A program made the position numbers and the translations under genes. A DNA stretch of 64,000 nucleotides from the NCBI GenBank assembly GCA_905178155.1, contig CAJINV010000017.1, forward strand, positions 612,722 through 676,721, written 5' to 3'. Of this stretch, positions 720 to 62,076 are shown one piece after another; positions within the stretch are counted from its first letter, which is position 1; every line of letters starts with the position of its first letter. The notes under the pieces are model-generated. The model made no database searches and was not told the DNA's origin. It worked only from the letters and a program-made list of their open reading frames with translations. Source of the stretch: Amoebophrya sp. A120 (Eukaryota; Protista; Dinoflagellata).

Positions 720-2255
720 GAGGCCTTTCGCTGTTTCAACGCCGTGAACATCCGCGGCAGGCCGTACTTGCGACTTGCGGAGCTGCACACCGCACTGCAA
801 GCCGTGTCCGCCAACCCGGTTTTCGATCAACTCCGGTCGAAGAGTCACAGCTTCTTCCTATGGATTGCAAAAATGTCTTGCAACTTGTCATGCTGTCTTT
901 GGATTCCAAAAAAATCTGTATTGCGTGACCAGCAACAGGACTCCAGTTTGTGTTACGCGGAGAGGGCATTTCTCATGCGGAATAGGCATCAGCAAGCCCT
1001 GTAAAAATCTGTGATGCTAGATCATGCATTACATGCGTCGTGGATCATACGAAAGATGCATCACAAATTCCGGAATCTTCCAGACCCAGACTACATTTTT
1101 ACACTCGATACTTCCCCTTGCTGTGCAAGGCGTTTCTGAACGCGTCCGCTAACCGGGACCAACAGTGCTCCGCAGCGGACTTCGAATCCTTGTTGGAGTC
1201 CTTGTCCCTGACCCAGTTGGACGCCACGAACATTTTCCGGGCGTTCGTGCAAAACGACTTTGCGAGTCTGGACGTGTGGAGCTTCATCAACTTGATCCTC
1301 GGAGCTTTGTGTCCGTCGTTAATCCTGGAGGAGTTTCTGAACAACGATTTGTTGTGTGAAACCCTGCAGAATTTAGCCACCTGGTACTACAAACCGTTCA
1401 ACTTTGAGGAGTTTTTGAATATGTGCCAAAACTGTGGGATTTACGACAAGCGCGCGGTCCAGCTTTGCTTTTTGTTTCTGGACGTGGACAACAGTGAGCA
1501 GGTGTTTGCGCGAGAAATTCTCACCGCGTTCCACATCAAGCGGCAGCTGGCGCCGGGCGGCTCGGAAAAGAGCAGTAGTAGCAGGAAAAGACAGGGTACT
1601 TGCCGACAGTTGAAGGAAGTTGTTTTTTCTTATTTGAATGACAGAAAATCAGGCAGCACTATACATAGGAAGTTTTCGAACCTCGTTGTGTGCAAAGAAT
1701 GCGAAGTCCGGTAGTTCAAACTGTGCAGCTCTGAATAACTGCATTAAATAAACCTGCTCAGGTCAAACCAACCGCGCACGGCAGATGATTGCCGAGTCGC
1801 TAGGCAAACAATTTGCCGGGTGTTTTGCCAAGGCGGATCTGCTGAAACGGGTGGTGAAAGCGCCGTGGTCTGCTTCGGAGCAGGAAGCGGTGCAGGGCGG
1901 TTTCAAGACGCTTAAACGAATCCAGACCGGAATTCCCGTACCAAAACCGAAGAGAAAGGACGAGGACGAAGACGCCCCCCCGCCCAAACCCGGGTTCCGG
2001 AGGCGCAGGAAACTCGCCCCGTCCTCCGAGAACGCACCCGCGCCGGCGCAAAGCACCATGAGCAGCAGCGAACCCTACCTTGGGAAAGTGGAAGCGCTGC
2101 CCGCGGAGCTGCTGCACAGCGACCTCATTTTCAATCTGGAGGAGTACGCGAGATCGAAAAACGTGATCCAGAAGCAGCACACGTCGTTAATAACGGAGTG
2201 CGGGTCCAGGGACATGCTGGAGCTCTATTTCTTGGGCAACAAGCTGCGGACCTGA
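717..2255 (+). CDS. EF-hand-containing protein (5' end probably upstream of the window); exons ~717-858, 1116-~1595, ~1762-2255
   Basis: EAFRCFNAVNIRGRPYLRLAELHTAL and FLDVDNSEQVFAREILTAF resemble EF-hands; ORFs 744 and 1040 join in frame (SHSFF-PLLCK) after removing 859-1115. Confidence 0.6.
859..1110. mobile_element. Introner, family A (left TIR partly deleted), TSD CTTCC
   Basis: TATGGATTGCAAAAATGTCT ... CTTCCAGACCCAGACTACATTTTTACACTCGATA; CTTCC at 854-858 and 1111-1115; 257-nt removal restores the frame. Confidence 0.85.
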
Positions 2256-3358
2256 AAAGCATGAAGTGCTGTTCCTTCGCTGACTTGCGGTCGTGAGAAA
2301 AAGTGCTGGACTTCTTATTTGTGTGTATCTGTAAATGTAGACCACCTGGTCTCCGTCGGTACAGAAGTACTTAACGGGATGGTACTACCACTACTATGCT
2401 CGTACAGGCTAAATAAAAGTATGTACAATAATGTTTCGGTTTCATCAACATCCGTGCTTTGTTTAGTACTCAAAACGTATGCAATGAACTAGAACTTGTG
2501 CTGCTTGCGAAGAAATCAGAACGAGGTTTCTTACCCCTAAGCTAGGCAACAGTTATCTTCACCAAGACCAAAATTGTAACAATCCAATCTCAAACACAAA
2601 GACAAACTCAATCTCTTCAAGAACCAAGACCAAGATTACTATACCAATTCGTAGACCCGATGCAAATTCTGGACTGGATTTTTGACGATAATCCGTAAAC
2701 TCCAGAAGTAGTTGCTGCAAGACATCGCAGACAGCAGCTTTTGCTTACGAGGGAACTAAACTTACTTACATCGACCGTGCTGCTCCGCACGCCACAATGC
2801 TGAACTGATAGCGACATACATTTTAAGCCTGAACGTTACTCTGCCGATGACCGGCACTGCGCACGGTCGCCGCGGACTCCACGTTGGATAAGTTTTCTGC
2901 AAGAAACAAGCATTTTTTTGTCCAGCCTCTTTTGAAATTTCGTCTTGTCGTGTCCGGTGCTTTCCTTGTTGAGCGACACGAGTGGCAGTTGTTGAGTGAA
3001 ATGGATTGGCCTCGGTTTGTTTCGAGATCTCGTTAACACTGAGGATACGAGGGACGGTCGTTTCAATATGCCGTAAGAAGTGCAGAAGTTCAGTCGGGAG
3101 TGTTATTGAGCCAGAACGTCGCAATTTAGGCAGACGATACAATCCAAATCCTGCCCTGTGAGATCGAAATACATCACAGAGAACCAGAAGCAGACACAAG
3201 AGCAGAATAGTGCAGCTAAGTAGGGGAAAAGCAAAGGCAGCAAAACGCTATGGCCGTTTCCCCGCGGCAAGTAGATGTAGAACTACATTCGTTAAATAGA
3301 TGCATCCGCTGCCGAGCAGTAGAGAACCACTTTCAAGAACTACGCCTCGTCTTCGCGC

Positions 3359-6300
3359 ATGGGCAGCATTAAACACTACAACACACAACAGCGTCCACCG
3401 ACACCACCAGCATGCCACCTGCTGGCTCTGCTCCTTTTGGCCGCCCTAAGGTCCGCTTTCGGCGAGCAGAAAAGATACGGGCTCCGTGGGAGTGCCGCGA
3501 AAGGGGAGGGTGCATCAATACCGGCAATCATGGGGGATGGCGTCATCTCTGGTGCTGAGCAATCAGCTGCACAAACAGAAAATGAGCTCTCAGCCGCCTT
3601 CACGCAACAAGACCACGGAGCGACCGGTATGAACAGTGGTGGAGGCTCGTCTGCCACCGCTTTTGACTTCGTAGATGAGGCGAAACTAGTACAAGGAGCA
3701 CCAGCAATATCACAAACTTCAACATCTCCTAATCCCTCCCTGCGGGGTGCTGGGCGGCGGCAAACGACCACACCTGCGGTGGAAAGTAGATCAAGCGCAG
3801 CTGATGTAGAAGCGGAAGATGCGACTCTGTTCGACGCGGAGGCGGCCATCGATCCGGCGTCCTCGTTTTTGCTTACGGGGGTACAAGAGGAAGAAGTAGC
3901 GCAGAAGCTGGAACAAGAGCAAACTACTTCGGAAACACAACTACAAGCAGCAGCGGCAGCAGCTTCGACTAAAGCGGGACTGGGTCTCGAGATGAGCCAA
4001 GAGCAGAAAGAACAAGAGGAACAAGAACATATTCGAGCTGCAGCTGCTGCAGAGGCCACAAGTCAGGAGCAACAGGAGCAGGAGAAAATTATAGCCAAGA
4101 CATCGGAAGAACGAAATCATCTCGATACCAGTGAAATAAAAAGTAGAAATGAAGCAGAAAAATCCGCAGCAGACGTCGAACACCTCCCAGCATCGAGCCA
4201 TCTGCAAAAAACGGCGGAAACGCCAGTACTGAAAAGCGGTTTCACTTCCGGCGACGACACGGGGTCCTGCTGTTACGGCCACGAATTACTCGGCATCACT
4301 TTATTGAAAGGCGAAATACTACTTCTTACAGCTAGTCTCTGATGAACACATCAGGCGTTCTTGTGTAGTAAGTTGTGAGAGGCTTGTAGTACATGTTGAT
4401 CATGATAGCTGCAAACTTGGGTCGTTGCAATCGCAAAGATCTCAACTATGTATGCATGAAGCACCGTGCCAGCTTGTTGCGTCCGCGTTGACCTCCTTCG
4501 CCCTTGACTTTGACAGGGGGAAAGTTAATAGAAGTTTCATTTTCCCAGCGATACAATGCAGAGGATAGGAAGCGGCAACAAGTTGCTCTGCAGTCACTGG
4601 GAAAAGCAGGGTCGGGAACCGGAAAGAAGACAAGCCAGAGGTACTGCTATGTTGTATACGTACATTGATGACATTGGTAAATTTGTTGCCATTGACGAAG
4701 CATTTTCAATTTCATGGATGCTTTTTGGAATCCCAAGCTGTCGTGCGCAGAAAGTTTGCTAGAACAAGCGGGCATCATGAACGCAAGACTCATTGAAAGA
4801 ATACTACTTACAACTAAACTCAGGTGTGCCAAGGAGCGTCTGGACCTTCCGTGCGAATACAAGCTGACGTTCCCGCAGCGGAACCCGAAGGACCCCGACT
4901 ACAGCTGCTGCAAGCTACAGGGTAATTCGAAGACATGCTATCCACTGCATTATTGATTATGTCTGGGTCTTCTATGCGACGCAAGGCGAGCATGGTTTTG
5001 TATCGATTCGGTTAGCATGACTGTCAGGTCTGTCGTGTACGTCACGCAAACGTACGAAAAGCTCCCAAAATTGTTTGTCATGCAGACGCTACAGTTTGTC
5101 ATTGTTCTGCAGACGCGTAGCCGCCTTCCAAAACTTTATATTTGTCCCACTTCATCCCCCCTGACCCTGAGCGAGTTAAAGGTCTGTTCTTGTGCTGCTC
5201 GTGCCCGCAGCACAAGTTTTCAGAGGACCTCCTATGACGTAATTTTTGCAGTTGATTAGTGCGTTCAGAACCCGAAGATTTCCGACGCTGACGAAGCCAC
5301 ATGCCGCATGAAAAGGATAAATCCCCACGCCAGGGTATTACAATGAAAAATGCCCCCACCCCCGAACTTGAAAGCATTTGTATTGCAAACCTTTCCAAAT
5401 GAAACATTCGCCCTTTTGCATGTATTAGCATCACAGATTTCCGATCGTGAATAGCAAAAATTTGTATTGCAAAAGATCCCAGCAAGAGCTGTGTTTGTCA
5501 TGCAAGCGATGCGAAACACGACTAGACTCTGCATCAGAAAGATTCATACTCCTTTCATGCATGACAAAAAGTTTTCATTTGGAAACTTCGCATCACATAA
5601 ATTTTTGCAAGTTTGGGGGTGGGGGGCACTTTTCACTGTAATACAGGGCGGACTACGAAGCGTATTGGTGGTGGATAAAGTACTATCCAAGAAAAAAAGG
5701 TTGTTAGTGTAAATTTGTGATGCGCAAAATGCAAATTGATTGCGCCTGTCATGCTGTGCCTGCATTGTAGGGTCTATTTAGCGGCGTTTTCCCGTACTAT
5801 CTGCGCATGACAGGTTTCTGCTGTCGTGCGAGAGATATTTGTCATGCTAATCCTCCAAGAAAGTTACACCCACAATCTTTTTTTTCTGGATCATAAGTAC
5901 GGCATCGGCGACGACGCAGAAAAGGAACGGCTGCAGAAATTACGGGAGCAGCTGAATAAAAAGTGCAAGGTATCGTGAGGAAGAATTAATCCCCGCTGCC
6001 ATTCTGAAAAGGGTATAGCTTGTCTTGCGGATTCGCGTAGAAGTCCACACAATAAAGGCCTCTCTCTAGTTGCATCCTGCCGCTTTTTGCAAGACAGAGC
6101 TGAATTGTGCGCAAAACAATAAATAATTCCGGATATACTTTACTCAAACGAAATTTCCTTTTCAAAAAATGTGGAGCGCCGGGTTGCTTTTTTTCACTGG
6201 TATACAAGAAAGAGGCCTTGGACATAACGTGCGAGTACAGATTCTATCTCGAAGACTACGAAGCGGAGATCGACAAGAAGTGCTGCTACGAAAATCACTC

Positions 6301-8649
6301 GGGCACCAGGAACGCGAGTTGTGGGGCTCGGAAGGAGTTGCCGCCAAAGATACTGGAGGAGGTAAGTTAAGTACAGTAATTTTTTTGATGTTTTGTTGCA
6401 GGGAAGAACAAGAAGTATGCTAGCGCCTGCTATGCCTGTCGTGGTTCTTGTAGGGAGGTTCTTGCATGTATGTTCGATGAACCGAAGATGATACAACTTT
6501 CTTGCTCGTGTTGGATGAAAAGAATAACTCTATAATTTCGTGCTACTCCTGCAGTGCGTCGAAGTGGGCCCCAACCCGAATCCTCCCGACCCCGAGGCCT
6601 TTATCCCCGGAAATAGAAAAAAAGTCGCGTCAACAGATTAAATGAATCGTGAGTAGTTGTGACCATGAAGTATACTCCTTGCAACAGAAGTGCAGTATGA
6701 AGTATACTCCTTGCAACCATGAAGTATAGTACCCCGTACTTTATGCATGGAAAAAATTTGTTCTTGTTCATCTTCGCTGTTGTGCTGTCTCTCGGGAACA
6801 AGATGATCATTCAGGTAGCTGCGGCTCTTTTATTTCCTCCATACCCTTACCCGAACGCCTCCGTCCAAGGTCAACGCCATCGCCTAGGTATGATAGATTT
6901 GATGTTGTCAGATAAACACGAAATTCATATTAATACTTACTTACAGCTCCGTTCAGTTGTATTTTCATACGTCAATATGATGATGATCGCCTTTTAAGAT
7001 TCAGCATTCTATTTCACTGCACCGCAATAAATTATCAGCCCCACCACGCCGTCAGGGGGAGATATCGACGGGCTTCCAGTATTCCAGTACGCAACTCTCC
7101 CTGTCCCTCGTTTGGCATGCAAAACGCGCAAAAATCCTGTCTAGGCCGTTTCTTTGACCGTGATCTTTGCATGACGACTTCTGGAAGTACTAGCCCAAAC
7201 AGCACTATACATGCCGAGCGTGGAAGATTTGTCTTGCAAAAAGACTTCATAATTCATCCTCCTGTTGCTAGGAACGCACCCACTGAAATTGAAGTAACAG
7301 GGAGGGGAACTTGTGCAGTCTCATAACAGGACCGGCAAAAGGATCCCGATCCGGACGACGGTGATTCGGGGAGTGCCGAAACCTCGGCAAGTATCATGTG
7401 CAGAAACCGATACCCATACCCTAACTTCTGGGTCAGACAAATGCAAATCCAGAACTTCTTCTGGGACTCCTGCATGACGAGTTCTTTGGAGATGCAGTGT
7501 AGAGCAGGTGCACCAGGGGCATCAGAATAAAGGAATCGAATATCATCTTATCCTGATCAGGGCATGAGAACCTCCCGAGCAGATGAAGTAAAAAATAAGG
7601 TCTTTTGATGGTGAGCAACCGCATGTTCACGAGAAATTTTCTTTGCATGATGCGCATCCATAATTTGCATGACGAACAATACGGGCTGAGAAGTACCAAA
7701 GTGGTTTTTGCACAGGATAGAAAGTTCCGTCGAAACGTCGGACCCGGAGGGAACCGACCCAGAGACGGAGTCGGAAGAAACCTGGAGTGAGTCGGAAGAG
7801 TGGGAAGACACGGACTCTTCGGACGGGGAAGCCAGTTCCTCCGACGAGCAGCAGATCGTCGTGAAGGTCACCACGGTCACCGGAGGTGGTATGGGAGTGT
7901 CAGAATTGAAATCCACAAAGTTGAAATAATCTGTGACGCATAAAACGGACACCACTATTCGCCTAGTTTCCAAGTGGCGCATGACAAATTTAGGTAGAAC
8001 CGAAATCCAGTTTGTAATGCTGTTTGGGTAAGGAAGACGCCTTTTGTCATGCTACTTTAGCAGCTCTATCTCTACCCCGCAACAGGCTTACAATCTGCAT
8101 CCCATGCGTCCTCTGCAATAGAGGCAACTTCTGTGTTGCATTTTATGCATGACAAATTATTTCAACTTTGAGGATTTCGATCCTGACGCTTCCATAGGTG
8201 GAGATGGTGCAGGTGGTATGGACGCAACGCAGAAAATGCTGACCGCCGGTATGACCCGCTCAAATGTTTCAATCTCAAACGTTACAATAGAATCTGGTTT
8301 TTGTATTGCATGATGAGCATGACAGACCCGCACAGCGTTCCAATTTCTGCATTGCAAATATCGCCAGATTGTAGTGGGGTTTAGGGCTCCGCAACTTGTC
8401 ATGCGCAATCATATGAGAGTTGGCTAGATCATGCACCTCTTGCATCACAGATTTCCATATTCTATTGTGACGTTTGAGATTGTAACGCCTGAGCGGGTTA
8501 TAGCCGGCAAAAGGTCTCCGGTGACCAGTGGGAGTCCAAATGTCCAAATCACCGGGACCGGGAAAGGCAACGTGAAGGTGGTTGGTGACGGCCACGGCGG
8601 CGACGACAGTTACGACGGTTCGGATTCGGAATCTGCTGCCGCCGCTTAG
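3359..8649 (+). CDS. Secreted/surface protein: signal peptide, Glu/Gln/Ala-rich region, Cys-rich modules, acidic Ser/Gly tail; at least 10 introns, mostly non-canonical
   Basis: Hydrophobic LLALLLLAALRSAFG; exons chained in frame by introner removal (GNSKTC-VQNPK, PHAR-ADYEA, WIKY-GIGDD, ETSAS-SVETS, VTGGG-DGAGG, LTAG-KRSPV); some 5' junctions unresolved. Confidence 0.6.
4939..5258. mobile_element. Degenerate introner-like intron
   Basis: Imperfect IR TATCCACTGCA / TGCAGTTGATTA; TGC repeated at both junctions; removing 4939-5262 joins the frames. Confidence 0.55.
5336..5643. mobile_element. Introner, family B, TSD CAGGG
   Basis: TIR TATTACAATGAAAAATGCCCCCACCCCCGAACTTG / TTTGGGGGTGGGGGGCACTTTTCACTGTAATA; homologous copy at 42692-42996. 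Confidence 0.9.
5684..5895. mobile_element. Introner, family F, TSD AGTAC
   Basis: TATCCAAGAAAAAAAGGTTGTTAGTGTAA / TTACACCCACAATCTTTTTTTTCTGGATCATA; same terminus as 31076-31260; frame restored. Confidence 0.85.
7080..7325. mobile_element. Degenerate introner-like intron
   Basis: TAT...ATA ends, weak IR (CTCCCTGT/ACAGGGAG), CAG repeated at the junctions; removing 7080-7329 gives STGFQ-DRQKD. Confidence 0.45.
7392..7719. mobile_element. Introner, family G, TSD GCAAG/GAAAG
   Basis: TATCATGTGCAGAAACC / GGTTTTTGCACAGGATA (15/17 IR); 333-nt removal is in frame. Confidence 0.8.
7890..8196. mobile_element. Introner, family D (~55-bp TIR), TSD GGTGG
   Basis: TATGGGAGTGTCAGAATTGAAATCCACAAAGTTGAAATAAT... 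/ ...ATTATTTCAACTTTGAGGATTTCGATCCTGACGCTTCCATA; related TIR at 61100-61405. Confidence 0.9.
8250..8502. mobile_element. Introner, family E, TSD GCCGG
   Basis: TATGACCCGCTCAAATGTTTCAATCTCAAACG / CGTTTGAGATTGTAACGCCTGAGCGGGTTATA; 258-nt removal is in frame. Confidence 0.9.
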
Positions 8650-40000: not shown

Positions 40001-40840
40001 TGATGCTGAATTTGGATTCCAAAAAAATCTGTATTGCATGAGCAGCAAAGGGAGTGCAATTTTTGCTACGCGGAGAGGGCATTTGTCATGCGGAATAGGC
40101 ATCGCGAAGCCCTCAAAAAATCTGTGATGCTAGGGCATGCATCACAGACATCATGGCCAATGCAAAACATGAATGACAAGTCTCAGAATCTTCCAGACCC
40201 AGACATTTTTACATTTGATAAAGATTGATCCTGTACAAACAATTGATCGAGACGGCGCCGTTCTTCCAGGAGCTCCGAAGCTCCGCCGTCGGCGCGGTCG
40301 TGAGCGGATTTGACGAAATTGTGGTGTGTCCGGGGGACATCATCATCCGGAAGGGGGCGGTTGGCAGGGAGATGTTCTTCATTTTGAAGGGCAGGGTGGA
40401 AGTTTGCGGCAGTGCCGATGGGTACCCGCTGTACGCGACAAAGTCGCAGGGGGAGTATTTCGGTATAGAAGTGGGCTACTAGTAGTTCCTGCGTGATTGA
40501 GTATTTCTGTGCTCATGTTGCGATATTGAAATAGAATTGACGTCTTCGCATATTATGATCTACTGATGCAGTAGTTCGAACGAGTAGACCAAGCGCAAGC
40601 ACCTCTACTCTGAATAAACACCACAACGTTCTTTCATCTCCAGGCGAAGCCGCCCTCCTGATGGACACGTTGCGGTCCGCGTGGGTTCGGGCGAAGACGT
40701 TTGTCGTGTTGGCGCACCTGACAAAAGACAAGTTCAATTTCATCATGGAGGAGTGTCCGGACGAGAAATTCAAGATGCTCCAGGAAATTGACGCGCAGAG
40801 GATTGTCCTGGAAAGCGATGGGGACGACAAGAAGAAGTAA
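34047..40840 (+). CDS. Cyclic-nucleotide-binding-domain (KCNH/HCN/CNG-like) cation channel, multi-exon
   Basis: TM segments, S4-like AVRFLRCYRLF, S5 WFFLIAHIMGCVWF, C-linker LPPSLQFRINRYQRF, CNBD PGDIIIRKGAVGREMFFILKGRVEV...GEYFGEAALL...RSAWVRA. Confidence 0.88.
35709..35960. mobile_element. Introner, family A (subfamily A3), TSD TGCAG
   Basis: TATGGATTGTAAAAATGTCTGGGTCTGGAA / TTCCAGACCCAGACATTTTTGCACTTGATA; open frame continues after removal. Confidence 0.93.
36052..37052. mobile_element. ~1-kb TIR element acting as an intron (distinct family), probable TSD AAGGA/AAGGT
   Basis: GCAAGTGAATCAC / GTGATTCATTTGC (12/13 IR); internal repeats of GAGGTGTAATCAC in both orientations; removal restores the channel frame. 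Confidence 0.7.
39959..40220. mobile_element. Introner, family A (A1), TSD AAGAT
   Basis: Perfect 32-bp TIR TATCAAATGTAAAAATGTCTGGGTCTGGAAGA; gives LELRL-ILYKQ in the channel C-linker. Confidence 0.95.
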
Positions 40841-41022
40841 TTAGGTGGGCCGAGGAGCTGAGCCGGTAGTCGTAGCGGACGAAGATAAGTAAATTTTTGC
40901 GTCGTGACCACTTGTGTATGATTCTTCTGTCTGTATACTTCCAGAAAGACAAGAAGACAATCTGACAGATGACATTCATGATCAAAGAACAATTTAGTTG
41001 CAGTCCACTAGATAGTCCAACA

Positions 41023-45473: not shown

Positions 45474-48400
45474 ATGATGAAAGTAAATTTCAGAAACGAT
45501 TTTGTCGCGTTGGACTGTCTTCGGCTTTCCGGAGAAGTGATCACGTACATTGTTGACCCGGAACTGATCCAGACCGTCCAGGATTTCAAGGTCTACCTGA
45601 ATTACCTCGAAGGCATCCCCGTGTCCCTGATCTCCGTGTTTCATGTCAAAACGGCCACAGCCGGAGGAGATGAATTATCTGGCTCTAAGGTTGGGAGTTC
45701 TTCTTCCAGGAGACCGTCGAAAGAAAGCAACGCTGTCGGTCCTCCAGGAGTAAATTTCCAAGCGAGCGAAAGCGGTTCGGCGTTCGAAGAGGAGGACCAA
45801 GCTGCAGGCGATGCCACGAATCCACTTCAGACTTGCTCGAAATCCACCGCAGGAGGAAATGGTGCGGCTTTGACGGAGGAGCTTCTAGAAGACAGCATTC
45901 TGCTCTCTGAGCTGACGCTGAATTCGCAATTAACGTCGCAGCAGCATCCGGGGTCTAGTACAACAAGTTCTTCCGACAGCTGTGTAATTCTGGTCACACC
46001 ACGAAACATCAAGGCTAACGCTAACGCATCTTCTTCGCAGCAAGCCCTCGCGGCCGAACTTCACTCCCGAGTCCAGCTCCGACTCATTATCAACGGGGTT
46101 GCGTTTCCGAAGGAAGTTAACTCCGATTTTTCCTTCCTCAACCAACTGGGTTTGGAGAAGTGCCGGCAGTGGGTTTTCTTGGAGGCTTTCAAGGACTGCC
46201 ATATGAAATGCAAATATGTCTGGGTCTGGAAGATTCTTACATTTGTCATGTATGTCTGACATGACTCGAGAATCAATCTGTGATGCATGGGCACGAAAAG
46301 ACTCTCCTATCTGTCATGCAAAAACGCAGCTTCTCATGCGGAACACGCAACACATAGCAGCTCAAAAATTTGTCATGCTGGGCTGCGTATTGCAGTCCGG
46401 CTATCATCCACTTTTTGCATCACAAGTTTCCAGACCCAGACATGTTTGCATTTGATATGCCAGTTGTACGAGCAGTTGAAGGACAAATCCGCGTTTTTCT
46501 GCCGGGTCTGCAAACAGCACCGGGAGGCGGGGAACGTGATCCTAGCGCTGGCGGAGTCTCCGAAATTGATCGAGTTTTTGGATTTCCGAACCGAGATGCC
46601 CGTGCTGAACGCGGAGGTCATGCCGGGGTATTACTACGTGGAGCAGGGCTGTACTGCTAATATTTTTTGCACTGGGGAAGAACAAGGAAGGAACGTTAAA
46701 GGTAGAAGCACCAGCGTAATTGCCATGAACGCGACCAACAGGAACCCGAAGGACCCTGCGGGGGTGCACGATACAGCTGAACACGACAGCACTGAGGAAG
46801 TAGTAGACCATCCAGCAGCAGCCACTGCTGCTGCTGCTGCAGAAAATAAGCCAGTACAACATCAACAGCAAGCGAGTAGAAAGACCACTCGCCGCGGGTT
46901 GACCACCGGTGATCTCATCCACAATCGGACCAGTGATGTTGGAGAAGGTGAGAACCAAACACCGGAACAGGCCCTGTATTCTGTTCTGGAACAACTCCGG
47001 TTCCAGAACAGCGGGATGATGCAGCGGGATTTCCTGCCAGCCACGGCGAGCAAACGACCATTAATCGTCGGTGCGGATTCGTCCTTTGAGCATCTGGTTC
47101 AGGCTGCGCGGAAGCCGAATAACAGTGGCGGGTCGTCTGCATCTACTACTAATTCGCCGGTGAGTAGAACTGCAGCTCTACTTTCGCCGGACGACCCGAA
47201 TTGGACTAAGGAGACGCTGAAAGACAGTGATGTAGAAGCTGTTTTGGAATTGGAGGATGAGAAAAATGGTATTCACGATGATGCAGGACGAGGAGGTCGT
47301 GCTCTCCCCGGAGGGGTCGGGGAAGCACGAACCATCGGACGCGAGATCAGAGGGGTAAGGCCGGCCCAAGACGAGGCCGAGCCAGAGACATACAACCTCC
47401 CGCAAGTTACCGACCGCTCTCCCTGCGCAGTAACTGGGTACTGCCCCCTTTTGCACAGCAGGTCCGCGATTTTGGGAAACACCGACCCGGAGATAGTACT
47501 GGAACAGGAGCGCGCAAGTCTTCTACACCAGGAGAGCGCCTCCAGGAGCGACTTCTCTAATGAGCGCGGAGCAGCACAAGCACGACTACAAGAAGAAAAC
47601 CTAGAAACCCAGCCGGGTTGTACAACTGCTGCAAAGGCATCAGATGACGTTGATGCTGTAGTTTCATCGGCGCACGATACTGCCACGGAGGACGATGATG
47701 TGCTTGATGTCCCAGCGGGACGAGAAGAAGAGCCTAGAACAAATGCAGGGGTCCCTAGAGGACCGCCGGCGCATCAACAGCCGGAGGGTGAACAGGTGAA
47801 TCCGAATACCGGGTCGGAGACAGAGGTTTATGACCCGCACGTGTATTCCTACTACACGTTTCTCTACGATAGAGAGCGATCGTCAGCTGGGTCACAAGAT
47901 TTTTCAAACAAAAACCATGCTGGAACGGAAGTACAAGACGACTTCAAGCTGAACGGTGACGCAGCACAGGATCATTTTCAACGAAACGGGAATGTTGACG
48001 CTCTACTTCCTGAGGATTTCGGCAAAGGAAAGACCGGCGGCTTATGCTTACCCTCCACTTCGCGTTCGCAACAAGCGCTCCAACATCTGCCGAGAAACGA
48101 CCACTCGTTTTGCCTCAGCGAAGCTGAAGACCGGAATGCGCCGGCCTCGGGTAAATCTTCCGCGACCTTCTGTCCGATTGCGTCGCATTCCCTACTTTAC
48201 ACCATCTTCAACGAAGCCGAAAACGCATTTTTTAGCTCGGTGAAGGAGCAGTCCATGCCCTCCAACTACAAGAGCGGTACAGCAACAACGCAACATGCCC
48301 TGAAAAGGACGCAGAGCTCGGAATCCTGTTTGAAACGGAAAACGACTGCAGTCTCGAGCGATAAGCAGCCGGCAAGATTGCCCGATGCTGAGAAAAACAG

Positions 48401-51283: not shown

Positions 51284-53906
51284 GTGAAGACTGGCTGGGC
51301 CGCGCAAGGTCGTCGCGGCATAGAAAATAACCTTCGGCGTGCCCCCGGGAAGAGCATACTTAACGACGCAGTAGACCCGATCCCTCCGACCCTTTCCGCG
51401 AAAGAACACGAGGCCGAAAAAATGTTGCAAACTACATCAACCGAGCGGTACATTTTAACGCAGTTTCAGACGTTTCTGCAGCAGACCGCCGGGACTACGG
51501 AGCTCTTCTCCCCGACCAATGTGGAGGCGCAAAACTTCGGCCTGCTCGTCGGCTTTCGGGAGCTAGGGGACCGGTCGTTCTTCCTCCTGGTTTTGCTCTC
51601 CGCGCTGTTTGGCAAAACGTTGAGCTGCCACTTGGTCACAGCGCTGGTGTTCGCGTTCTTGTTGCAGGTTGCGGTAGTGCTGAGTTTGGCCAGTTTTAAG
51701 AATGAAGGAGCACAACTACCAGGAGGCGCAGCGGGGGCTTCCGGAAGGGAACCAGCAGCTCATTCCGCACACTCGTCTGAAGTCACGAGTACCACCAGCA
51801 AAGGCAGCGCAATCTTCACATCAGGTCCCTACGACAATGCCAATTTTGACTTTCGCACCGTGTCCACCCACGCGCAGATTGCCACGATTGCCTGCTTTTT
51901 CTTCCTGACGCTGAAAATTTTCTTTGTGGATTTAGCGAAGGCCGACAATGGTTGGGGGCTGTGCGGGGGTGGTAGTACAACAGGGAACTACGGCAACGAG
52001 TCCGCCGCGGGGTTTGTGGAAGAGGACGAATTTGAAGAAGACGAGGACATATCAAGTGCAAATATGTCTGGGTCTGCAACATAGCAACTTGTCATGCTAC
52101 GTCTGAATCATGCAAGAATCTGTTTTGCATCAGTATCAAAAGCCGTCCTTTTTTGACCAAGGTGAGAGAGTTTCTCATGCAGAATAGGCATGATAGAGAT
52201 CTCACAGAATCTGTCATGCTAGGTCCTGCATTCCAGACCTCATGGGTCATCGAAAGCCTGCGTTACAAATCGCGTACTTACTCTACCAGACCCAGACATA
52301 TTTGCATTTGATAGGACGCGGTGGACGTCGTGTACTTGGACGCGTCCGGGCAGATTGCGCACAACGCCGGGGTATCAAATGTAAAAATGTCTGGGTCTGG
52401 AAACTTGTGATGCTGGGTGGCGTCTCATGATGAGGCCACAAATGCTGGATCAGCATGACAAGTTTCTGAGCTTCTAGGTGTTGCTTATTCTGCATGACAA
52501 ACTGCGTTTCTGCATCACAGAAAGATGGGGCTCTTGGGTAATGTGCATGACAGATTTAAGGGTCATGCCAGACAAGCATGACAAACATGCATTCTTCCAG
52601 ATCCAGACATATTTGCAATCCATACGGGGAGATGTACCGAAACGCGGCGCAACAGGATGAAGATTACTACAGCGACGCCGGTGCGACACCCAGAAATAGC
52701 AATAGTCGGGCGTCTGTGGGTATATTGGCGAGGGTTTTTTCTTCTCTTTGCATAGAAAAGCTAGGACCTAGTAGTTGTGGAATTCGAAACAAGAAATTCA
52801 GGGGTGATCACATTGACAGCAAATAATGATTCAGCACACACCAACATGTACATGAAGCGCAGTTACTTTTTTCAATTTGCTTTTGTTGTCTATTGCATGC
52901 TTGATGGACATGACTTTCCCATGAACCGGATCAGGTAGCTCCCGCGACATCGAAACCGGAGAGGCCGACGGTCTGCTTTCAGCAGGTCGTGGAGACGAGC
53001 AAGCGAGATTAGCATCGCAGTCCTCAGCGGCCTCGAGCGGACGATCACACGAGTACACGACGTCGACACCCTCTACGAGGTCTTCTTCCCCCGCTACTGA
53101 GCCTCCCGCCCACATGCTTGTTCAACAGCGCAAAGCGAGCTTCACCGGTTGCGGAACGAGGGGCTGGGGTAGTAGTTCTTACAACTACCGTGGAACAACC
53201 AATTTCTACACGACCGCGTTTGCCAAAAACGCCCTGCCCACGCATCAAAAATACCAACAACTGGTGCAGCAGCAGTACCAAAGCACGGGGAGTTTCATGG
53301 AATGCTTCGAACAGGGGTCCTACGTGTTCGCACTAACAACTCTGCTCTTCTTGCTCCATTTGGAAGATCGGGGACAGCAATTACTGTCGGAGCGAATTGA
53401 GGAAGAATTTCTTGTCGGGGAGGTGCGCAGGTAGGAGTCGACACTTTTTGTTGCTGTGATAATGGAGGTCTGAGTGTGCTGTAAGATGATTTTCTATCAC
53501 TCCTCGTGCACGCGCTCGGCTCTTGCAGTGGTATTTATTTGCGCAGTTTCATTTTCACTGTCTACACCAATCCCAGGTATTGTCAAATAAATTTCACGAC
53601 ATTCACAGCTGGCAGCTTCTGACGATTGGCACGTCCGTGCTTCTCCTTTCCCGGTTCCTCGCTGTTTGTGCAGGCTTCGTCCTGCAGTGGATGCTGACGA
53701 GACGAGCCGTGATGGTGCTGTGCATTTTGGCTTTTGCGGGATTCGTGCTTTCCGAAGGATGTACTGCCGCAGCGGAAAATTTGGAATCAAATTCCATAGG
53801 TCATGCAGAGAGGACGAGGAGGGGTAGCTCTTTATCTTTTGGCACGGCGTTTCGTGCTGGGAGGTCTGCCCTTCAAACAACGCCGTCTTCTTCAGGGGCT
53901 TTTTAA
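51284..53906 (+). CDS. GDT1/TMEM165 (UPF0016)-like cation antiporter, divergent; start uncertain
   Basis: Signature ELGDRSFF followed by TM helices; degenerate second repeat LHLEDRGQ; acidic central loop. Confidence 0.65.
52050..52313. mobile_element. Introner, family A (A2), TSD GGACA/GGACG
   Basis: TATCAAGTGCAAATATGTCTGGGTCTG / CAGACCCAGACATATTTGCATTTGATA. Confidence 0.92.
52373..52624. mobile_element. Introner, family A (A3, inverted relative to 35709), TSD CGGGG
   Basis: Reverse complement aligns with 35709-35960; gives HNAG-EMYRN. Confidence 0.93.
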
Positions 53907-54565
53907 GTACCTTCAGGCGCACTGAGACTCTTACTTAATTACAAGCAATTGGGCGGTTTTGTTAATAGGAAGCACAAGCAAGTGTGTAGTGGACACGAGA
54001 CGGGCACAGTGGGCCTCAAGGTTGTTGTTTTTTTCCGAAAATTTATTTGTCCACATGAAAACGAAAACGAATATGAAAATCACCAGGCGTTACAGAGATT
54101 CCCTCGCAATGAAACAGCATGCGTGAAACTTACAGACAGTCGAAGATGAAAGAGCAGGAGTTCGTTTTTCTCGTGCTAATACCATCGTTGGGAAGTTGTA
54201 CTTAGATAGTTGTACTTAGATAGTTGTAGAAATAGAAGAAGTTGGAAGAACAATTCGATGTCGTCGTAACTGTCGTCTGGTCGTCGCCATGTGTTGAAGC
54301 CTTTCTGATTCGTCGCTCCGCGTAAGTAGTAAGTGCACTCTATTTATTCGTGCTCTTCGCGTTATCATGACATAAAATTTCTTTTGCTTCCACAAAAAGC
54401 GTTATGAAGCTTAATTCAAGTAGAGAGGCGTCTTGTTCCCAAGAAGATCTGAAGCCTAGATAGAAGCCAGCACGGGTTTTTTTCTTGAAGCACAAGAAGA
54501 GTAAGGAGTAAGTGCCCGATCTTGTTGTTTCTTGTGCCTGAAAAAGAAGTCTTCTTTTCTTCAAA

Positions 54566-57500
54566 ATGCCCGCCCCCCACATATGGCTCGACTCCATTCG
54601 GGAGGCGCGGGCCAACCTGCAGCTCAGCGGCGCAGTGATGGTAGGAGGCGAAACGGAAGATGGGCAAAGGCTGCTGGCGGAGGCCAGGGCGTATTTTTTG
54701 TTTTTGGGAAGATTTGAATTTTGTTGCTCTGCTCGTGCCTCTAGTGCATGACAGACATGACTGGAAATCCCTGTATCGAAACATAACAAATCCTCACAGG
54801 ATCATGGCGCAGAAGCAGGAGGCGAATCCGCCAATAGTCGTTCCGCGTAAAGCACCGGATCGCGTTTGCGTGTGGAGGCCGGGAAGGTTATGGAATGTGG
54901 ATCTGCAAAACCCACGTGCTGTGGCTGGGATGTAATGCTGTAAAGATTTTTAGCGTGGTGCTGGTCAAACAATTCTCTCTGCATTTGTTCAGGGTCTGGC
55001 AGAAGATCCAGGATTGCAGGATCACATCATCTTCAGTGGTGCCCATCTTCCAAACACAACGCTCCGTTGTATCGCGAACACAGGCTGACAGCCACAGTTT
55101 TTGTTTTGCGGCTTGCATTGCATAAGTTCCTCGGGAAAACTTGGTCGACTTGCGGTACTACGTGGATAACGGGAAAGGGCGGGTAGCAGTGTCCGAGAAC
55201 CCATCGTGGTACAGGATTCAACGTCAAATTTTGATGGTTTGTGTGCTGCATAATCCACATTAGGCCTTCAGCATGAGAGAAACCTTTTTTCATGCTCAGT
55301 TTTGCATAGTAGATTCAGGTTGCAAGTACGCAAATTCGAATGTGTATGAGGTACCCCGGCGTCTCATTCAAGAACGGTAATGGCATGAAGCAGGTTCGCG
55401 CAAACAAGCAGGCTCGTGACCTTGACAGTTGGTGCGTCTGCTGGGCGACGAGGGACGAGGAAGGGAAGCCACTGCGACTGGCGCGCCACTTCTACGTGGG
55501 CCAGTTTTACACGAAGAACGACCAGAATTACGATCACGCGAAGAGACGGGCGAGGCAGTTTGCCATTGAATTCCGGAAGGCGAAGGTAAAATGTTGGATA
55601 CGATGGTTTATTTTACCCACGCGGTCGCGATGATATTTATCGTTTTCGAATAATTGTATACGCAGTTGCATAGTGGTAGCGGAGGTGTAGGGCGTCCAGT
55701 TTGTGGACCACCGGAACTACAAGTGGTGAAAAAATGAAAAAAAATTGCAAATACCAGGTAAAAGAATACGACGAAATGACACGAGAAAGGGATTTATGAA
55801 ATCATGAAAAACAACCCCACGATTGGATGTTTCACTGCGATCTCGACCGATGCAGATACTTACATAGTTGCATGCACGAGAGAGACAGTTCCTGTAGCTC
55901 TTCTTCAAGAAAATGCCTGTAAGTCAGCACACTTCGAGAGGCATGACCATCGGTTAGTATGTAGTGAGGTCACCGAACGGTTCTAACCAGGGAGTTTTTT
56001 TGACAGCTACCCTGAAAAACGACCGGCAGTTTTCAAGCGGCCGGAAGCGTTTTTGCACATAAAAAATTTGCACTTATCAAGCGGCCGGGGCTTTGAAGTC
56101 AAACAAGCCCGGTGGAAAACTATCGATTCGCACTTGATAAAACGACGCAGGGGAGCCGGCAAAAGGGGCGCCCTTCTGAGGCGCCCACCGCCTTGATTTC
56201 TGGCGATTTGGGGCGCCCAAAAAGGGGCGCGCAAAGAACGCGCTCAAAATCAGAACAGCGAAACAGCATGGCACGGCCGCGATTTCGGAGCACTTTAGGC
56301 GGCCGCGAAAGCGGCCGCCTTTTCGCCGCTTTCAGAGCCTGGGAAGCTTTGCAAAAAGCGCCGGAGTGAAAAATAAAAACGCGAAAAAGAAAAAGCGCCC
56401 CAGACGCGCAAAGCCAATCCGCATGCTATGGGCCCGATTTTTCTTCGCTTTTTGGGCGCCCCCCGTAGCACCCGGATCGGCCCCATAGCATGGGGGCTGG
56501 CTTTCGGAAAGGAATTTCGGGAATTCGCCAAAATTTGTGACGTTTCTCAAGTGACCGCCATACCGTGCGGCATAACGTTCCTCACGGTGGTATGGCGAGC
56601 CCAAAAAAAGCAAAGCCGCGGCCAAGGCGGCGGTCGGCAAAAAAACGCCCACGACCTCACTACCCCCGCCCCGGCGGCTATATTTCGTACTAGAAGATAC
56701 AGAGGCATGTTGAAGACAAGAGATGAAACTCGTTGACACGACCATTGACAAATCCAAAAAAGTGAAACAACACGTAAAAGAAAATTTCTACTTCCCGTCC
56801 ATACCCCCGGCTGAATTTCGAGCGGCTCCGGGCCCTGGACAAGTTACACCAGTACCGCGCGCCGAGAAACCGCGTCGCCGCACGACAATCCGGGAGGCAG
56901 GGGGTAACGTGGATGAAAACCAGCCAGTCCTGGCAGGTACAACTACGCGTGTGGGATCCCGCGTTGCGGAAGTCGCGCGTGATGAAGCAGTGCCACGTGC
57001 GAATCGCGTTTCCCGACGGAACCACGCAGGAAGACGACGAGGCAATAGAAGCGGCCGTGGAGAAAGCGAGGTTACTGGCAATCGAGATCAGGAAAGAATG
57101 GGAGAGAAGGTAAAGTGAAGACTGCAGTCGTGGTTTCTGCAGCGTGCAAAAAATGTTTATACATTTAAATGCACTTAATCTTGTTTTGATTGTCTCGCGC
57201 ATTTTTGACGCTCCTAGTGTTACAGAAATGAAATTTCCAGAATTATTTGTGATGGAAAAAGCGCTTACACAAACACAACAGGTATCGTGTGTACACGGTG
57301 AAGCACTACGCCCTTCATCCGAGGTATGACGAGAACGGAAAACTGATCGAGGATGAACCGTATGAATTGCAAAAATCCCTGGATGTCTGGAAGAAAGCGC
57401 GATTTGTCATGCTGCTTTTCCATGACCCATGAGGTCTGGAATGCCGGACCTAGCATGACAGATTCTGCGAGACCTTTCTAATGCCTAATATCCTGCATGA

Positions 57501-58350
57501 GAAACTACCTCCCGACTTAGTCAAAATTTGGCGACTTTTGGTAATCATGCAACACAGATTTTTGCATGCTGCAGATTTAGCATGACAAGTTCCTACCCTT
57601 TTGCAAGTTCGATTTTGATTCGTTATTTCTTGTTTTTTAAGATGATGATGATACTTTCTTCTGGTTAGCCCGTCTAAAAAGGGTAATGATCCGCTCCCGC
57701 AGGCAAAAAATTTAGCATGACAAGTTGCAATCTTCCAGACCCAGACACTTTTGCATTTGATAAACCGGAGAACGACCCAGAACACGTGCCCGAAGAATAC
57801 GACCAGTACGGGAACCCGAAACGTCCTGCACAGCAACAACTATCAAATGTAAAAATGTCTGGGTCTGGAAGAATGCAACTTGTGATGCTGCATTTGGATT
57901 CCAGGAAAAATCTGTATTGCGTGAGTACCAGAAGGAATGCAATTTTTGCTACGCGGAGCGGGCATTTGTCATGCGGAATAGGCATCAAAAAGCTCTCAAA
58001 AAATCTGTGATGCTAGGGCATGCATCACAGACATCAGGGCTCATGCAAAACATGCATGACAAGTGTCAGAATCTTCCAGACCCAGACATTTTTACAGTTG
58101 ATAACAACAAGAGCAAGACTTTGCGGAGGCTGAGGCACAAATGAACCTCTTGTTTCCGAACGTCGGGGCCAACTTCATCGCGGACGAGGGAGATCTGCTG
58201 CCCGAGGAGCTCGATGGGTTCGCTGAGGAGGATTTTGAGGACGTAGAGGACGACATTCTGGCCGACGATAATGAGCAACTGGATGGTGCTGGGTTTATCA
58301 GCGAAAGCGATCCAAGCAACCAGGACGCCGATGGTGATGTGATCATGTAA
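54566..58350 (+). CDS. Protein with two AP2-like DNA-binding domains and an acidic C-terminus (ApiAP2-type factor)
   Basis: YPGVSF...DSWCVCW...RHFYVGQF...ARQFAIEFRK and QSGRQGVTWMKTSQSWQVQL...ARLLAIEIRK; exons chain in frame. Confidence 0.7.
55957..56691 (+). mobile_element. GC-rich dispersed repeat copy 2, within a predicted GT-AG intron (55586-56822)
   Basis: Colinear with 12980-13714; GTAGTGAGGTC 55961-55971 / GACCTCACTAC 56653-56663. Confidence 0.8.
57361..57762. mobile_element. Introner, family A (A2 inverted, mixed TIR types, internal insertion), TSD AACCG
   Basis: TATGAATTGCAAAAATCCCTGGATGTCTGGAAG / CTTCCAGACCCAGACACTTTTGCATTTGATA; gives EDEP-ENDPE. Confidence 0.9.
57841..58103. mobile_element. 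Introner, family A (A1), TSD ACAAC
   Basis: Close relative of 39959-40220; gives AQQQ-QEQDF. Confidence 0.95.
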
Positions 58351-59236: not shown

Positions 59237-62076
59237 ATGCAGTCGCCTCGGAAAAAGAAGGTTATGGTCAACACTTCTCCGATGGTTTTTCATCATCTCT
59301 GCAGCTCTGTCGCACTGACGGCAACTGTGTGGCTGAGTGCAAGTCCAACCTCGACTTTAATCTCCGCAACGACCTCCTCTTCCTCTTCCAAACGAAGGCC
59401 TGCTTCCAAATCCGCCACTTCTCGAATTCTGCCCAACCCCCTCCAAGAGCCGGAGAAATGTGGGGCGATCAAACAAGGCTATCGGGTGTGCGACCTCGAT
59501 GGGCTGTTTCACCCGATTGAGTTGGAGAGGGTGCAGCACGCAATCACCGTGGCGAGTGGGAAGCCTGGCGCAGATGGTGGGAGGGACGAAAAGGGAGGGG
59601 ACACGAATAAGGGAGAAGATTCTCAAGCCCCCGCTGCCGGAGTAGATCATGCGGCCGACGCAGCTGGTGCCTCGTCATCTGGGGCGGGTAAGGCACCACC
59701 GGACGGGGCAGATGCGCGCAAGGAGGGAGATGCTTGTATCAATCCTTTTCCTCAGTTTATTTTGTCATAGCTTTGTCTCGAACATGTTGTACAAACGGTT
59801 TTCTGGCCGTCCTTTTATCTTTTCACAAATACGAAGAGCCTTTGCATTTTTGCCCTACTCCGAAAACAAACTTGAGGTCGCGGCGTGGAGCTGGCCATCG
59901 CGGTGAGAGAATACGAAGAGGATGCGTCGACCGCCTGCCGGCAAACCATGGACTCCTGGCAGGTCGGGGACAAGCACTGCCAGAACGGCGTCCTCATCTT
60001 TCTCGCGACGAAGTCCCGGCAAGTGCACATCTGCACGGGCAGGGGGGCGAAAAAAACCGTGTTGCCCGACAGGAAGGCGGCGAAGGTGGTGGAGTTGATG
60101 AAGCCTTTATTAAAAGAAGAGGAATACCCCAAGGCTTTGGAGGCCGCTTGCGGCCGGATTTGGCGTTACGTCTTGGATCAGTCCGTCGATGGGAGTAGTC
60201 GTGGTAGTAGTTCTACCGGGGTGGACGAAACCGGATCGGAGGACGAAGATGACAATTGGGTGTTTCTCATCGGGATTTTCTTCTGGGTTGCACTGCTGAT
60301 CTACCGGCACTTCCAGCAGAGCCGGCTGAAGTCGAGTTACGACTTGTGCAAAAAGAAACTGTCGAAATTGCAGCAACAAAGAGCAGAGGCAAATGCGAAG
60401 AAGTAAGTACTTGGTTTAGTCGGTTTTTGTCCTTCATCTTTTCATACTTCTGTGTACTACAATGAATTTTTTTTGCCAACCAGAAAACGTTCATCGATCG
60501 TATCCTGGTCGTGCGATCAGCACTAGTAAGCTATTGAAGATGTTTCTTCATGTCATCATCATCATCATCATCAACCCTCTCAGGTTCGACACGCTGAAGG
60601 GTTCCTGCCCGATTTGCCTGGAAGAGTTCAAAACCGGAAGGAGGACCAGAAAAAAGGGACGACCTCCAGCTTCGACCCACGAGGAGGAGCAGGAACCAAT
60701 AATACAGGAGCTCGACGACCCGGTTGATGTTGAAGGCACCACCAGCACCGCAACTGTGGTCCGCAAGCGGCAGACCCCGGAGAAGAGAAGGAGGAAAAAA
60801 ATCACGGCGGACGTATGGCGTTCTCAAACGTTTTTACATTCTCAACTGTTGCATGAGTTTGTATATGCAAGAATAGCATTGGTGAGAGGGGGAACCTTGC
60901 GCGTCTTGCATTACAGATATGGTGCGAGTTCTAATGCTATTTAGCCCTCCGAGAATTTGTCAATGCGAAGCAGCTGGGTCGTCTGGTGGCTCGTGGTCAT
61001 TTTGCATGACAAATCATGTAACAGCTGAGCGCGTAACATTTGAGAGCCCCATAGGACGGCGACGAAGTGAATGTCGCGGACTACGACAGCGACGACGACT
61101 ATGGATGTGTCAGGATCGAAATCGACAAAATCGAAAAACTTGTGATGCATAAAATGCAGGGCACTCAAGCCCTGTGTTGGGGAGCAGGCAAATGAGACCG
61201 ATTGTGAGCCTGTTTAGGGGTATGCAATGTGCTGCCAGAGTAGCATGGCAGGAGCAGTCTTCTTTGCCCAAACAGCATTACAGACTGGATTTGGATGCTC
61301 CCGAAATTTGTCATGCGCCGCTTGGAAACTGAGGCCCCAACTGGTATCGATTTTATGCATCACAAATTTTTCGACTTTGTCAATTTCGATTCTGACACAT
61401 CCATAACGACGCCTATCTCGTAGAGCCCGAAGACGCGGCGAATGAGGAGGAGGAGGAAGGAAGCCATCAAAGTGTAGGAACTAGTACAAGCAGTGGTGGA
61501 CAACGACAAGGGCACCAGCACGATGCAGACGAGGACCCAGAAGATGCCTCGGATGACGCAGCGGACGAGATCAAAATTCTCACCTGCGGTCACGCGTTCC
61601 ACGCGGCGTGTTTAGACGGGTGGGAGCGGAGCTCTTCCCTCTGCCCGGTGTGCCGCGCCCCGCAAGAGCAGACCTTAGATGCGACCACGGGGCAGCAGAT
61701 TGCGGTGCGCGATACAACTGGGACCACGAGTTCCTCTTCTAGCTCCACGCCCGCGGACATTCTCGCCGGCGCGGTCCCGCAAAGTAGGCAAGTATCGCTG
61801 CACCGCGACTACCTGTTCCGGATGAACCGGTTGCGATTGATGTACCCAGACTACGTCACCACCTCGTTAGTCGACCGCTGGACTGCGCCAAGCTTTTCGG
61901 GAAGCCCGTTGGCAGATGTGGATTTCGTCCGGTCGCAGCCGGGGTTCAACAGCGGTGGGGGAAACAGTAGCAATTTCGGGACGGGGGGAGGAAGTTCTGG
62001 GTCCTGGATGTCGTCCTCGAGCTCCTTCGGCGGGGGGAGCTCGTTCGGCGGCGGCGGGTCGGGAAGCTCGTGGTAG
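59237..62076 (+). CDS. TPM (TLP18.3/Psb32/MOLO-1) domain + TM helix + RING-H2 + Gly/Ser-rich tail
   Basis: TPM-like SWQVGDKHCQNGVLIFLATKSRQVHICTGRGAK; TM WVFLIGIFFWVALLIY; CPICLEEF ... LTCGHAFHAACLDGW...CPVCR; tail SFGGGSSFGGGGSGSSW. Confidence 0.85.
60814..61053. mobile_element. Introner, family E-like, TSD GGACG
   Basis: TATGGCGTTCTCAAACGTT / AACATTTGAGAGCCCCATA; frame restored. Confidence 0.85.
61100..61405. mobile_element. Introner, family D, TSD ACGAC
   Basis: TATGGATGTGTCAGGATCGAAATCGACAAA / TTTGTCAATTTCGATTCTGACACATCCATA; frame restored into the RING C-terminal half. Confidence 0.93.

Follow-up and report, generated by a model that had tools for sequence, protein, structure and literature searches.

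The stretch analyzed here, hereafter the window, comprises 64,000 nucleotides of Amoebophrya sp. A120 (contig CAJINV010000017.1, positions 612,722 to 676,721) and contains genes interrupted by short elements that begin with TAT, end with ATA, carry terminal inverted repeats (TIRs) and lie between 5-bp direct repeats that resemble target-site duplications (TSDs). A sequence-only reading had listed 21 of these elements, proposing that each is excised precisely together with one repeat copy. We found all 21 (185-402 bp; named here by their first position), but the repeat, perfect in 17, matches at 4/5 positions in the other four (7392, 22896, 43931 and 52050), and five elements had been missed. 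These are a 1037-bp element at 36042-37078 and four decayed ones (4939, 5971, 6602 and 7080), which we recognized because joints in RNA-like contigs, described below, revealed them (Table 1).

Scanning the window for TAT...ATA with identical 5-base flanks gave 22 candidates, and allowing one mismatch gave four more with clear inverted ends. Four perfect-repeat candidates were rejected: 5139-6137 includes other elements, 6928-7251 includes an exon seen in RNA-like contigs, 54044-54374 has a weak TIR and an RNA-like contig runs into it, and 56121-56375 belongs to another repeat. This left a working set of 22, the 21 listed earlier plus the 1037-bp element. As a criterion, the 5-bp repeat alone is weak (22 in the window vs 4-15 in Markov shuffles); TAT..ATA with a perfect 5-bp repeat and a TIR of at least 15/30 occurred 18 times in the window and 0-1 times in each of 20 shuffles, bearing out the proposed TIR-transposon anatomy. 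The 21 elements comprise family A (11 members), four pairs and two singles, and all-against-all blast recovered three of the four pairs as well as family A, whose 11 members fall into two subfamilies. Element ends fit the pattern TAT, seven weaker bases, then at least three A; predicted pairing of the two ends has a mean probability of at least 0.64 in 22/25 elements, and exceeds 0.1 in only 1/6 ordinary introns. The motif TGTSATGC occurs 68 times within elements and twice elsewhere. With TIRs, a duplication of fixed length, short length and many copies, all features of MITEs (miniature transposable elements with inverted repeats), the elements are likely non-autonomous DNA transposons. We also noted that the 402-bp element 57361 contains an internal insert of ~140 bp at 57574-57726, with a direct repeat on its borders.

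Compared with removal of the element plus 0, 3, 4 or 6 bases, removal of the element plus five left the longest open frame over the junction for 17 of the 22 elements; it tied in 3 and lost in 2. Of these five, four are shown as +5 by RNA-like joints. Stops occur in all three frames in 20 of the 22 elements, and the remaining two shift the frame. The conserved host genes named from the sequence (AP5B1, CNBD, RAP and RING) were borne out by Pfam matches in exons downstream of elements (AP5B1, RAP, TPM, RING and cNMP-binding, none shown spanning a junction). The absence of any GT/GC-AG register holds for the four repeats cited in its support, but a GT-AG register is possible at 7890, and 5971 and 7080 are GT-AG introns; a GA-AG register exists at 36042, 52050 and 60814.

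Removal from RNA and retention in DNA

The RNA evidence consists of assembled contigs from runs X1-X4, which share one sample label and whose RNA nature we infer from their behavior: GT-AG introns are skipped, several intergenic bins have zero depth, and there is one poly-A loose end; none of the 11 runs listed carries an RNA label in its record. Alignments of these contigs cover 4701-23700 and 35001-55000, which hold 15 of the 21 earlier-listed elements, five of those in the second stretch yielding no information. Among the 15 of 16 joints listed in 4701-23700, 10 skip an element plus five bases, 4 are ordinary GT-AG introns, and one (18646-22964, side 20) we read as a cross-match between two family A copies and not as splicing. 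Six of the seven earlier-listed elements in this stretch are removed exactly, 18616 having no listed joint, and seven listed joints (4939, 5336, 5684, 6602, 7392, 8250 and 22896) offer no GT/GC-AG register at all. Length arithmetic adds two removals: one contig in 35001-55000 has 149 bases between pieces where the genome has 890, and the difference of 741 (269 + 257 + 215) equals removal of 52050+5, of 52373+5 and of a 215-base GT-AG intron, the two elements being oppositely oriented. Precise removal with exactly one repeat copy was thus confirmed at 10 listed joints and at two more by arithmetic, and at no joint seen was the element retained or a nearby GT-AG pair used instead.

In the gene at 4822-8649, the 11 joints together yield one open frame of ~330 codons. 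Nine of its 11 RNA-shown introns are elements (4939-8502), several of them 35-73 coding bases apart; insertions are locally clustered here.

Contigs of the DNA run pass from unique flanks into elements at a depth of 22-28, the same as unique DNA, and no empty-site joint is present among the 15 of 628 joints listed for that run. At 7392, spliced contigs have depths of 268 and 152 vs 6.3 and 5.8 for unspliced ones. In the DNA the elements persist, whereas the RNA-like contigs lack them along with one copy of the repeat. Thus, of the earlier proposal of removal from RNA (or DNA), the RNA part stands, given the DNA contigs that enter the elements and the minor unspliced contig at 7392, whereas the DNA part found no empty-site joint among those listed. 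Ribosome hopping between matched codons in the repeats was set aside, since the elements are already missing from the RNA-like contigs. Contig depth, when summed, is far higher in element bins than in unique bins, which is not a copy number, and the raw-read runs X9 and X10 gave 59 and 7 aligned reads, nearly all partial and on element cores. About 50 X9 reads match 42 bases of an element core (44340-44382) and then continue in other sequence, reflecting either a related element in another strain or chance.

Position of the cut within the repeat

Since identical repeats cannot place the cut, we used junctions at which the two repeat copies differ. Seven of the 11 joints examined were informative, and removal at them tolerated imperfect repeats. 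RNA-like contigs kept the left copy at position 1 (4939, 6602 and 7080), position 2 (4939, 7392 and 22896) and positions 3-4 (7080), and the right copy at position 5 (5971, and 52050 from a piece end at 52043). That is, the left copy was kept at all 7 mismatches in positions 1-4 and the right copy at both position-5 mismatches, such that only a cut after repeat position 4 is compatible with all 11 joints examined. The intron is therefore likely N-TAT...ATA-NNNN, cut one base before TAT and four bases after ATA (the 1+4 register). This register predicts that at 43931 the base retained in RNA at position 5 will be the G of the right copy.

Some ordinary-looking introns appear to belong to the same series. 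Among GT-AG introns shown by RNA, 4/8 begin GTAT and 2/8 also have ATA at -7 to -5 (P ~0.008, from ATA frequency). Because of this ATA and of blast matches to other elements, which for 7080 run end to end in register and which 5971 also has (0/6 ordinary introns match any), the evidence supports the view that the GT-AG introns 5971 and 7080 are old elements in the 1+4 register. A candidate GT-AG intron at 55209-55355 carries a 5-base direct repeat and weakly matches the interior of an element; it is possibly one more decayed element.

Published data fit this register as well. All nine predominant non-canonical pairs of A120 have an xT donor (PMC7789003, Table S4), and according to the text of that paper the most frequent repeat lies four bases upstream of the 5' end.

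Table 1. Elements in the window, with their repeats, RNA observations and basis (a single TSD entry denotes identical copies)
Position	Strand	Feature	TSD (left/right)	RNA-like contigs and remarks	Basis
859..1110	+	element, family A	CTTCC/CTTCC		scan, blast, frame
4939..5257	+	decayed element (ends ATT)	CATGC/AGTGC	skip of 324 = 319+5; left copy at positions 1-2	RNA-like joint
5336..5643	+	element, pair with 42692	CAGGG	skip of 313 = 308+5	scan, blast, RNA-like joint
5684..5895	+	element, pair with 31076	AGTAC	skip of 217 = 212+5	scan, RNA-like joint
5971..6204	+	decayed element; GT-AG intron, 5970-6208, in 1+4 register	CAAGG/CAAGA	right copy at position 5	RNA-like joint
6602..6843	+	decayed element	GCCTT/CCCTT	skip of 247 = 242+5; left copy at position 1	RNA-like joint
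7080..7325	+	decayed element; GT-AG intron, 7079-7329, in 1+4 register	TCCAG/ACAGG	left copy at positions 1, 3, 4	RNA-like joint, blast
7392..7719	+	element, single	GCAAG/GAAAG	skip of 333 = 328+5; left copy at position 2; minor unspliced contig 7363-7751	one-mismatch scan, RNA-like joint
7890..8196	+	element, pair with 61100 (opposite orientation)	GGTGG	skip of 312 = 307+5; GT-AG register possible	blast, frame, RNA-like joint
8250..8502	+	element, pair with 60814	GCCGG	skip of 258 = 253+5	scan, RNA-like joint
18616..18883	+	element, family A, in AP5B1-like gene	AGGGC	no listed joint	scan, frame
22896..23163	+	element, family A, in AP5B1-like gene	AGATC/AAATC	skip of 273 = 268+5; left copy at position 2 (one contig, depth 3.8)	one-mismatch scan, RNA-like joint, Pfam
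31076..31260	+	element, pair with 5684, in RAP-domain gene	CTCCT		scan, frame, Pfam
35709..35960	+	element, family A, second subfamily	TGCAG		scan, blast, frame
36042..37078	+	long element, 1037 bp	GGATC	longest ORF (open reading frame) 92 aa, no Pfam match	scan, frame
39959..40220	+	element, family A, perfect 33-bp TIR, just upstream of cNMP-binding domain	AAGAT		scan, Pfam
42692..42996	+	element, pair with 5336	TTCCG	contig piece begins at 42997, 155 further letters preceding	scan, contig piece
43931..44269	+	element, single	AGCAT/AGCAG		one-mismatch scan, frame
44304..44565	+	element, family A	AACCA		scan, frame
46202..46457	+	element, family A, second subfamily	TGCCA		scan, frame
52050..52313	+	element, family A	GGACA/GGACG	removed; right copy at position 5	piece end 52043, length arithmetic
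52373..52624	+	element, family A, second subfamily, reversed	CGGGG	removed in same contig as 52050	blast, length arithmetic
57361..57762	+	element, family A, reversed, internal insert	AACCG		scan, blast
57841..58103	+	element, family A	ACAAC		scan, frame
60814..61053	+	element, pair with 8250, in TPM/RING gene region	GGACG		scan, frame, Pfam
61100..61405	+	element, pair with 7890, upstream of RING domain	ACGAC		scan, blast, Pfam

A larger sample and its relation to published introners

A degenerate family A end retrieved at least 160 matching stretches, all listed ones from one other metagenome-collection assembly, and the search pattern biases this sample toward family A. The sample comprises 153 loci, which add up to 573 kb when overlaps are counted and cover none of the unique DNA of the window, and the counts that follow are those among the matches listed. 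We found 372 distinct elements, of which 281 have a perfect 5-bp repeat; this repeat was present in 238/298 strong-TIR copies, with no other repeat length, 6 bp included, forming a class. For 195 copies with long flanks, the best frame was +5 in 98, +4 in 28 and +6 in 34. In the 131 of 360 copies that could be oriented, repeat bases follow flank composition, confirming that there is no target consensus, and there is no purine bias at the exon start; for 69 of these a window family could be named, and they lie in genes in both orientations (43 one way, 26 the other). Mismatch positions in DNA alone (10/6/5/10/11 in 29 copies) were uninformative on the register, and G at repeat position 5 showed no left-right bias. 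Clustering placed 337 copies in 54 clusters, with A at positions 11-13 in 86-94% of the copies, and of 48 clusters selected on the TIR alone, 42 contained YTGTSATGC, which frequently lay 30-50 bases from an end. This motif may be a transposase-binding site common to one lineage.

We found no autonomous element or transposase in the window or in the 573 kb of overlapping second-assembly loci. Six long elements (36042, and L021, L027, L030, L054 and L055 of the second assembly) lack a long ORF, the longest in long copies being 85-238 aa, and three ORFs from 36042 and L021 had no Pfam match. Element 36042 has ~15x unique depth in the DNA run, matches the common motif poorly and has no match in the second-assembly loci; it is a candidate larger deletion derivative. 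The family A TIR pattern had 0 matches among viral contigs, and an Rfam search of the window gave 0 matches.

Farhat et al. (2021; PMC7789003) described introner elements in A120 with inverted repeats that start with TAT, followed by seven weaker bases and an A run, and with direct repeats of 3-5 nt, counting 29,850 copies in 1,954 families and finding no transposase. The window elements agree with these in the TAT start and A run, the 5-bp repeats, a length of ~240 nt, the many families without internal transposase, RNA-supported removal at non-GT-AG ends, mixture with GT-AG introns in one gene and location in co-oriented genes; nothing separates them from the published class. The link to Amoebophrya introners drawn in the sequence-only reading is therefore upheld, and the window elements are an already published intron class, still unexplained, since PMC7789003 and a 2024 review both state the removal mechanism as open. 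What is added here is the mismatch-based cut register, the common internal motif and the orientation count. None of 'subterminal', 'ATGC', 'lariat' and 'template switch' occurs in the main text of PMC7789003, and we found no work fixing the register or testing the chemistry in Amoebophrya, although Roy et al. 2023 may bear on this and figures S19-S25 of PMC7789003 may display the register or the motif; nor, judging from titles and abstracts, did we find a lariat test in Amoebophrya.

Introners elsewhere invite comparison. According to excerpts of PMC12130899, A120 introners have been assigned to several transposon types, one with integrase-like ORFs between its TIRs. The introners of Micromonas, Aureococcus, Symbiodinium and Florenciella are, in excerpts of PMC9860276 and PMC12130899, also non-autonomous DNA transposons from which splicing removes one TSD, but they carry or co-opt GY-AG and hence depend on the target, whereas the window elements do not. 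IS3EU/GingerRoot elements, which use integrase-type enzymes, share the TA..TA termini, but their TSD is usually 6 bp in the excerpts of PMC10045372, in contrast to 5 bp here.

Some features of the window lie apart from the elements. An intergenic 735-bp repeat, 88% identical, occupies 12980-13714 and 55957-56691; it does not belong to the TAT/ATA type, loose ends of RNA-like contigs fall at its borders, and its overlapping ORFs have no Pfam match. The GC-rich segment 41024-41709 shows elevated depth in the DNA run; an RNA-like contig contains a diverged copy of it, and its overlapping minus-strand ORF has no Pfam match. Diverged copies of a small cysteine-rich C-terminal coding stretch lie at 13845-14368 and 15200-15865 and resemble the end of ORF 10537-10769. 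A 150-bp direct repeat, 97% identical (29-178 and 579-728), flanks a single N at 413, possibly an assembly join.

How the elements may be removed

Taken together, the observations suggest that TIR elements with 5-bp TSDs are cut in the 1+4 register by the host spliceosome, guided by a predicted terminal hairpin instead of by GT-AG, a reading to which we give roughly even credence. Specifically, a transposase acting in trans would insert an element without target preference, making the 5-bp duplication. Whichever way an element is transcribed, its RNA opens with UAU and closes with AUA, as read from the element sequences, and pairing of the TIRs is predicted to join the two ends. Cuts one and four bases from the base of the stem would sum to one duplication, the net +5 being observed and the register drawn from the seven junctions, and a U2-type spliceosome with loosened demands for G+1 and for the 3' AG could make these cuts using U+2 and A+3 of the element. 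Since the TIRs give UAU/AUA both ways and 1+4 equals 5, any insertion would be erased from the message, whatever its target.

We favor the spliceosome because the 1+4 register gives NUAU, which aligns U+2/A+3 with host GT-AG donors, because there is a gradation from elements to GT-AG introns with no shift of register, and because U2, U4, U5 and U6, with 83/89 spliceosomal proteins, are retained in A120, while U1 was not found (PMC7789003). Another Amoebophrya has GT-AG introns and U1, according to excerpts of PMC12005148. There is also a precedent in Fritillaria borealis, whose introns, in excerpts of PMC11282704 and PMC13326754, share the TIR and TSD, the MITE origin and removal by host machinery, reported there to be the spliceosome; they differ in having AG-AC/AG-AT ends and a TAC target, whereas the window elements have no target or end preference.

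Several points weigh against this reading. As to the register, the non-GT-AG junctions by themselves permit a cut after position 2, 3 or 4; the lower bound is set by a single junction, that of the GT-AG intron 7080, which has a repeat matching at 2/5 positions and may have shifted; and the xT donors and repeat placement in PMC7789003 may stem from an aligner sliding introns. Nor is there a sign of selection for spliceosomal ends. Among the window elements, GT/GC-AG ends occur only at 5971, at 7080 and in one register of 7890, and in 5/131 oriented copies of the second assembly, where GT-AG in the 1+4 register was expected in ~4 and no register is enriched; G at +1 is found in 45/131 copies (28% in the flanks as background), and when 88 decayed candidates were screened for GT-AG conversion from DNA alone, 3 qualified vs 2.2 expected. 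As to the hairpin, a terminal stem would hide intron positions +2 to +4, and predicted end pairing is weak in two removed elements (6602, 0.44; 52373, 0.41). Finally, no branch point, lariat or transposase was seen, contigs being unable to show lariats, and all four RNA-like runs are contigs of one sample label, taken as RNA by inference.

The strongest alternative is a non-spliceosomal endonuclease and ligase that reads the base of the hairpin with the same 1+4 ruler, as has been proposed for euglenid nonconventional introns. We hold it tentatively, as the less probable course, because there is no selection for G+1/AG and because the geometry is like the Euglena spacer code. Neither end has a dinucleotide requirement across the 131 oriented copies, elements occur in both orientations, and U1 was not found in A120. 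In excerpts of Nomura et al. 2025 (PMC12501133) and of PMC11282704, euglenid introns likewise lack GT-AG and have paired ends (predicted here), set stem spacers of which the 3' one is longer, direct repeats that blur the borders and a proposed MITE origin, and they are released as circles without lariats. Their code, N3-CDG...CH'G-N5-6|R with required pairing, is nevertheless not that of the window elements, which share its paired ends (predicted, 22/25) but have TAT/ATA in place of CAG/CTG, spacers of 1 and 4 in place of 3 and 5-6, and no exon preference in place of a purine exon start; moreover, the circles were shown in a lineage other than the window's host. Against a separate enzyme, U+2/A+3 coincide with host GT-AG donors, two elements are full GT-AG introns in register, and no such enzyme is reported for Amoebophrya in the literature examined. 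The donor and GT-AG objections are weak, since hybrid introns exist in Euglena (excerpts of PMC12501133). The earlier suggestion of non-spliceosomal removal thus keeps its support in the lack of dinucleotide selection, but a relaxed spliceosome fits U+2/A+3 and the two GT-AG elements at least as well. A bolder form, in which a dedicated non-spliceosomal machine, independent of that of euglenids, cuts the UAU/AUA hairpin one base before and four bases after its stem, is rather unlikely; if true, a sequence-blind ruler whose 1+4 equals the 5-bp duplication would license a transposon lineage marked by YTGTSATGC to enter any exon, in either orientation, harmlessly.

It is quite improbable that there is no fixed register and that the cut falls anywhere in the repeat, varying between elements or families. 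The legend of Fig. 3 in PMC7789003 calls the sites variable or unknown, and only seven junctions are informative, perfect repeats telling nothing; yet one compatible cut is common to all seven.

Two further explanations are unlikely. Excision from DNA in an active life stage, like that of ciliate internal eliminated sequences, finds room in the single DNA run of unknown life stage with 15 of its 628 joints listed, but we consider it very improbable: DNA contigs enter elements at unique-DNA depth without an empty-site joint among those listed, unspliced contigs occur in runs with zero depth in some intergenic bins, and excision by a transposase normally leaves both repeat copies or a footprint. 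Least probable of all is that the RNA retains the elements and that reverse transcriptase switched templates across a hairpin between direct repeats: this is the classic anatomy for such artefacts, all our evidence is cDNA-based and such enzyme-made non-canonical joints are the subject of PMC2923612, but the spliced form dominates at 7392, where the repeat is of 3-4 bases and the fold unremarkable (z -0.28), a single contig has lost nine elements at once with the frame restored, and every element of the working set holds stops in all three frames (20/22) or shifts the frame.

A fixed 1+4 register would give exact predictions for the first and last base of each excised RNA, for lariat or circle primers and for the design of synthetic introns. 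Such a register would also account for the TAT/ATA ends and the 5-bp duplication common to dozens of families that insert without any target preference.

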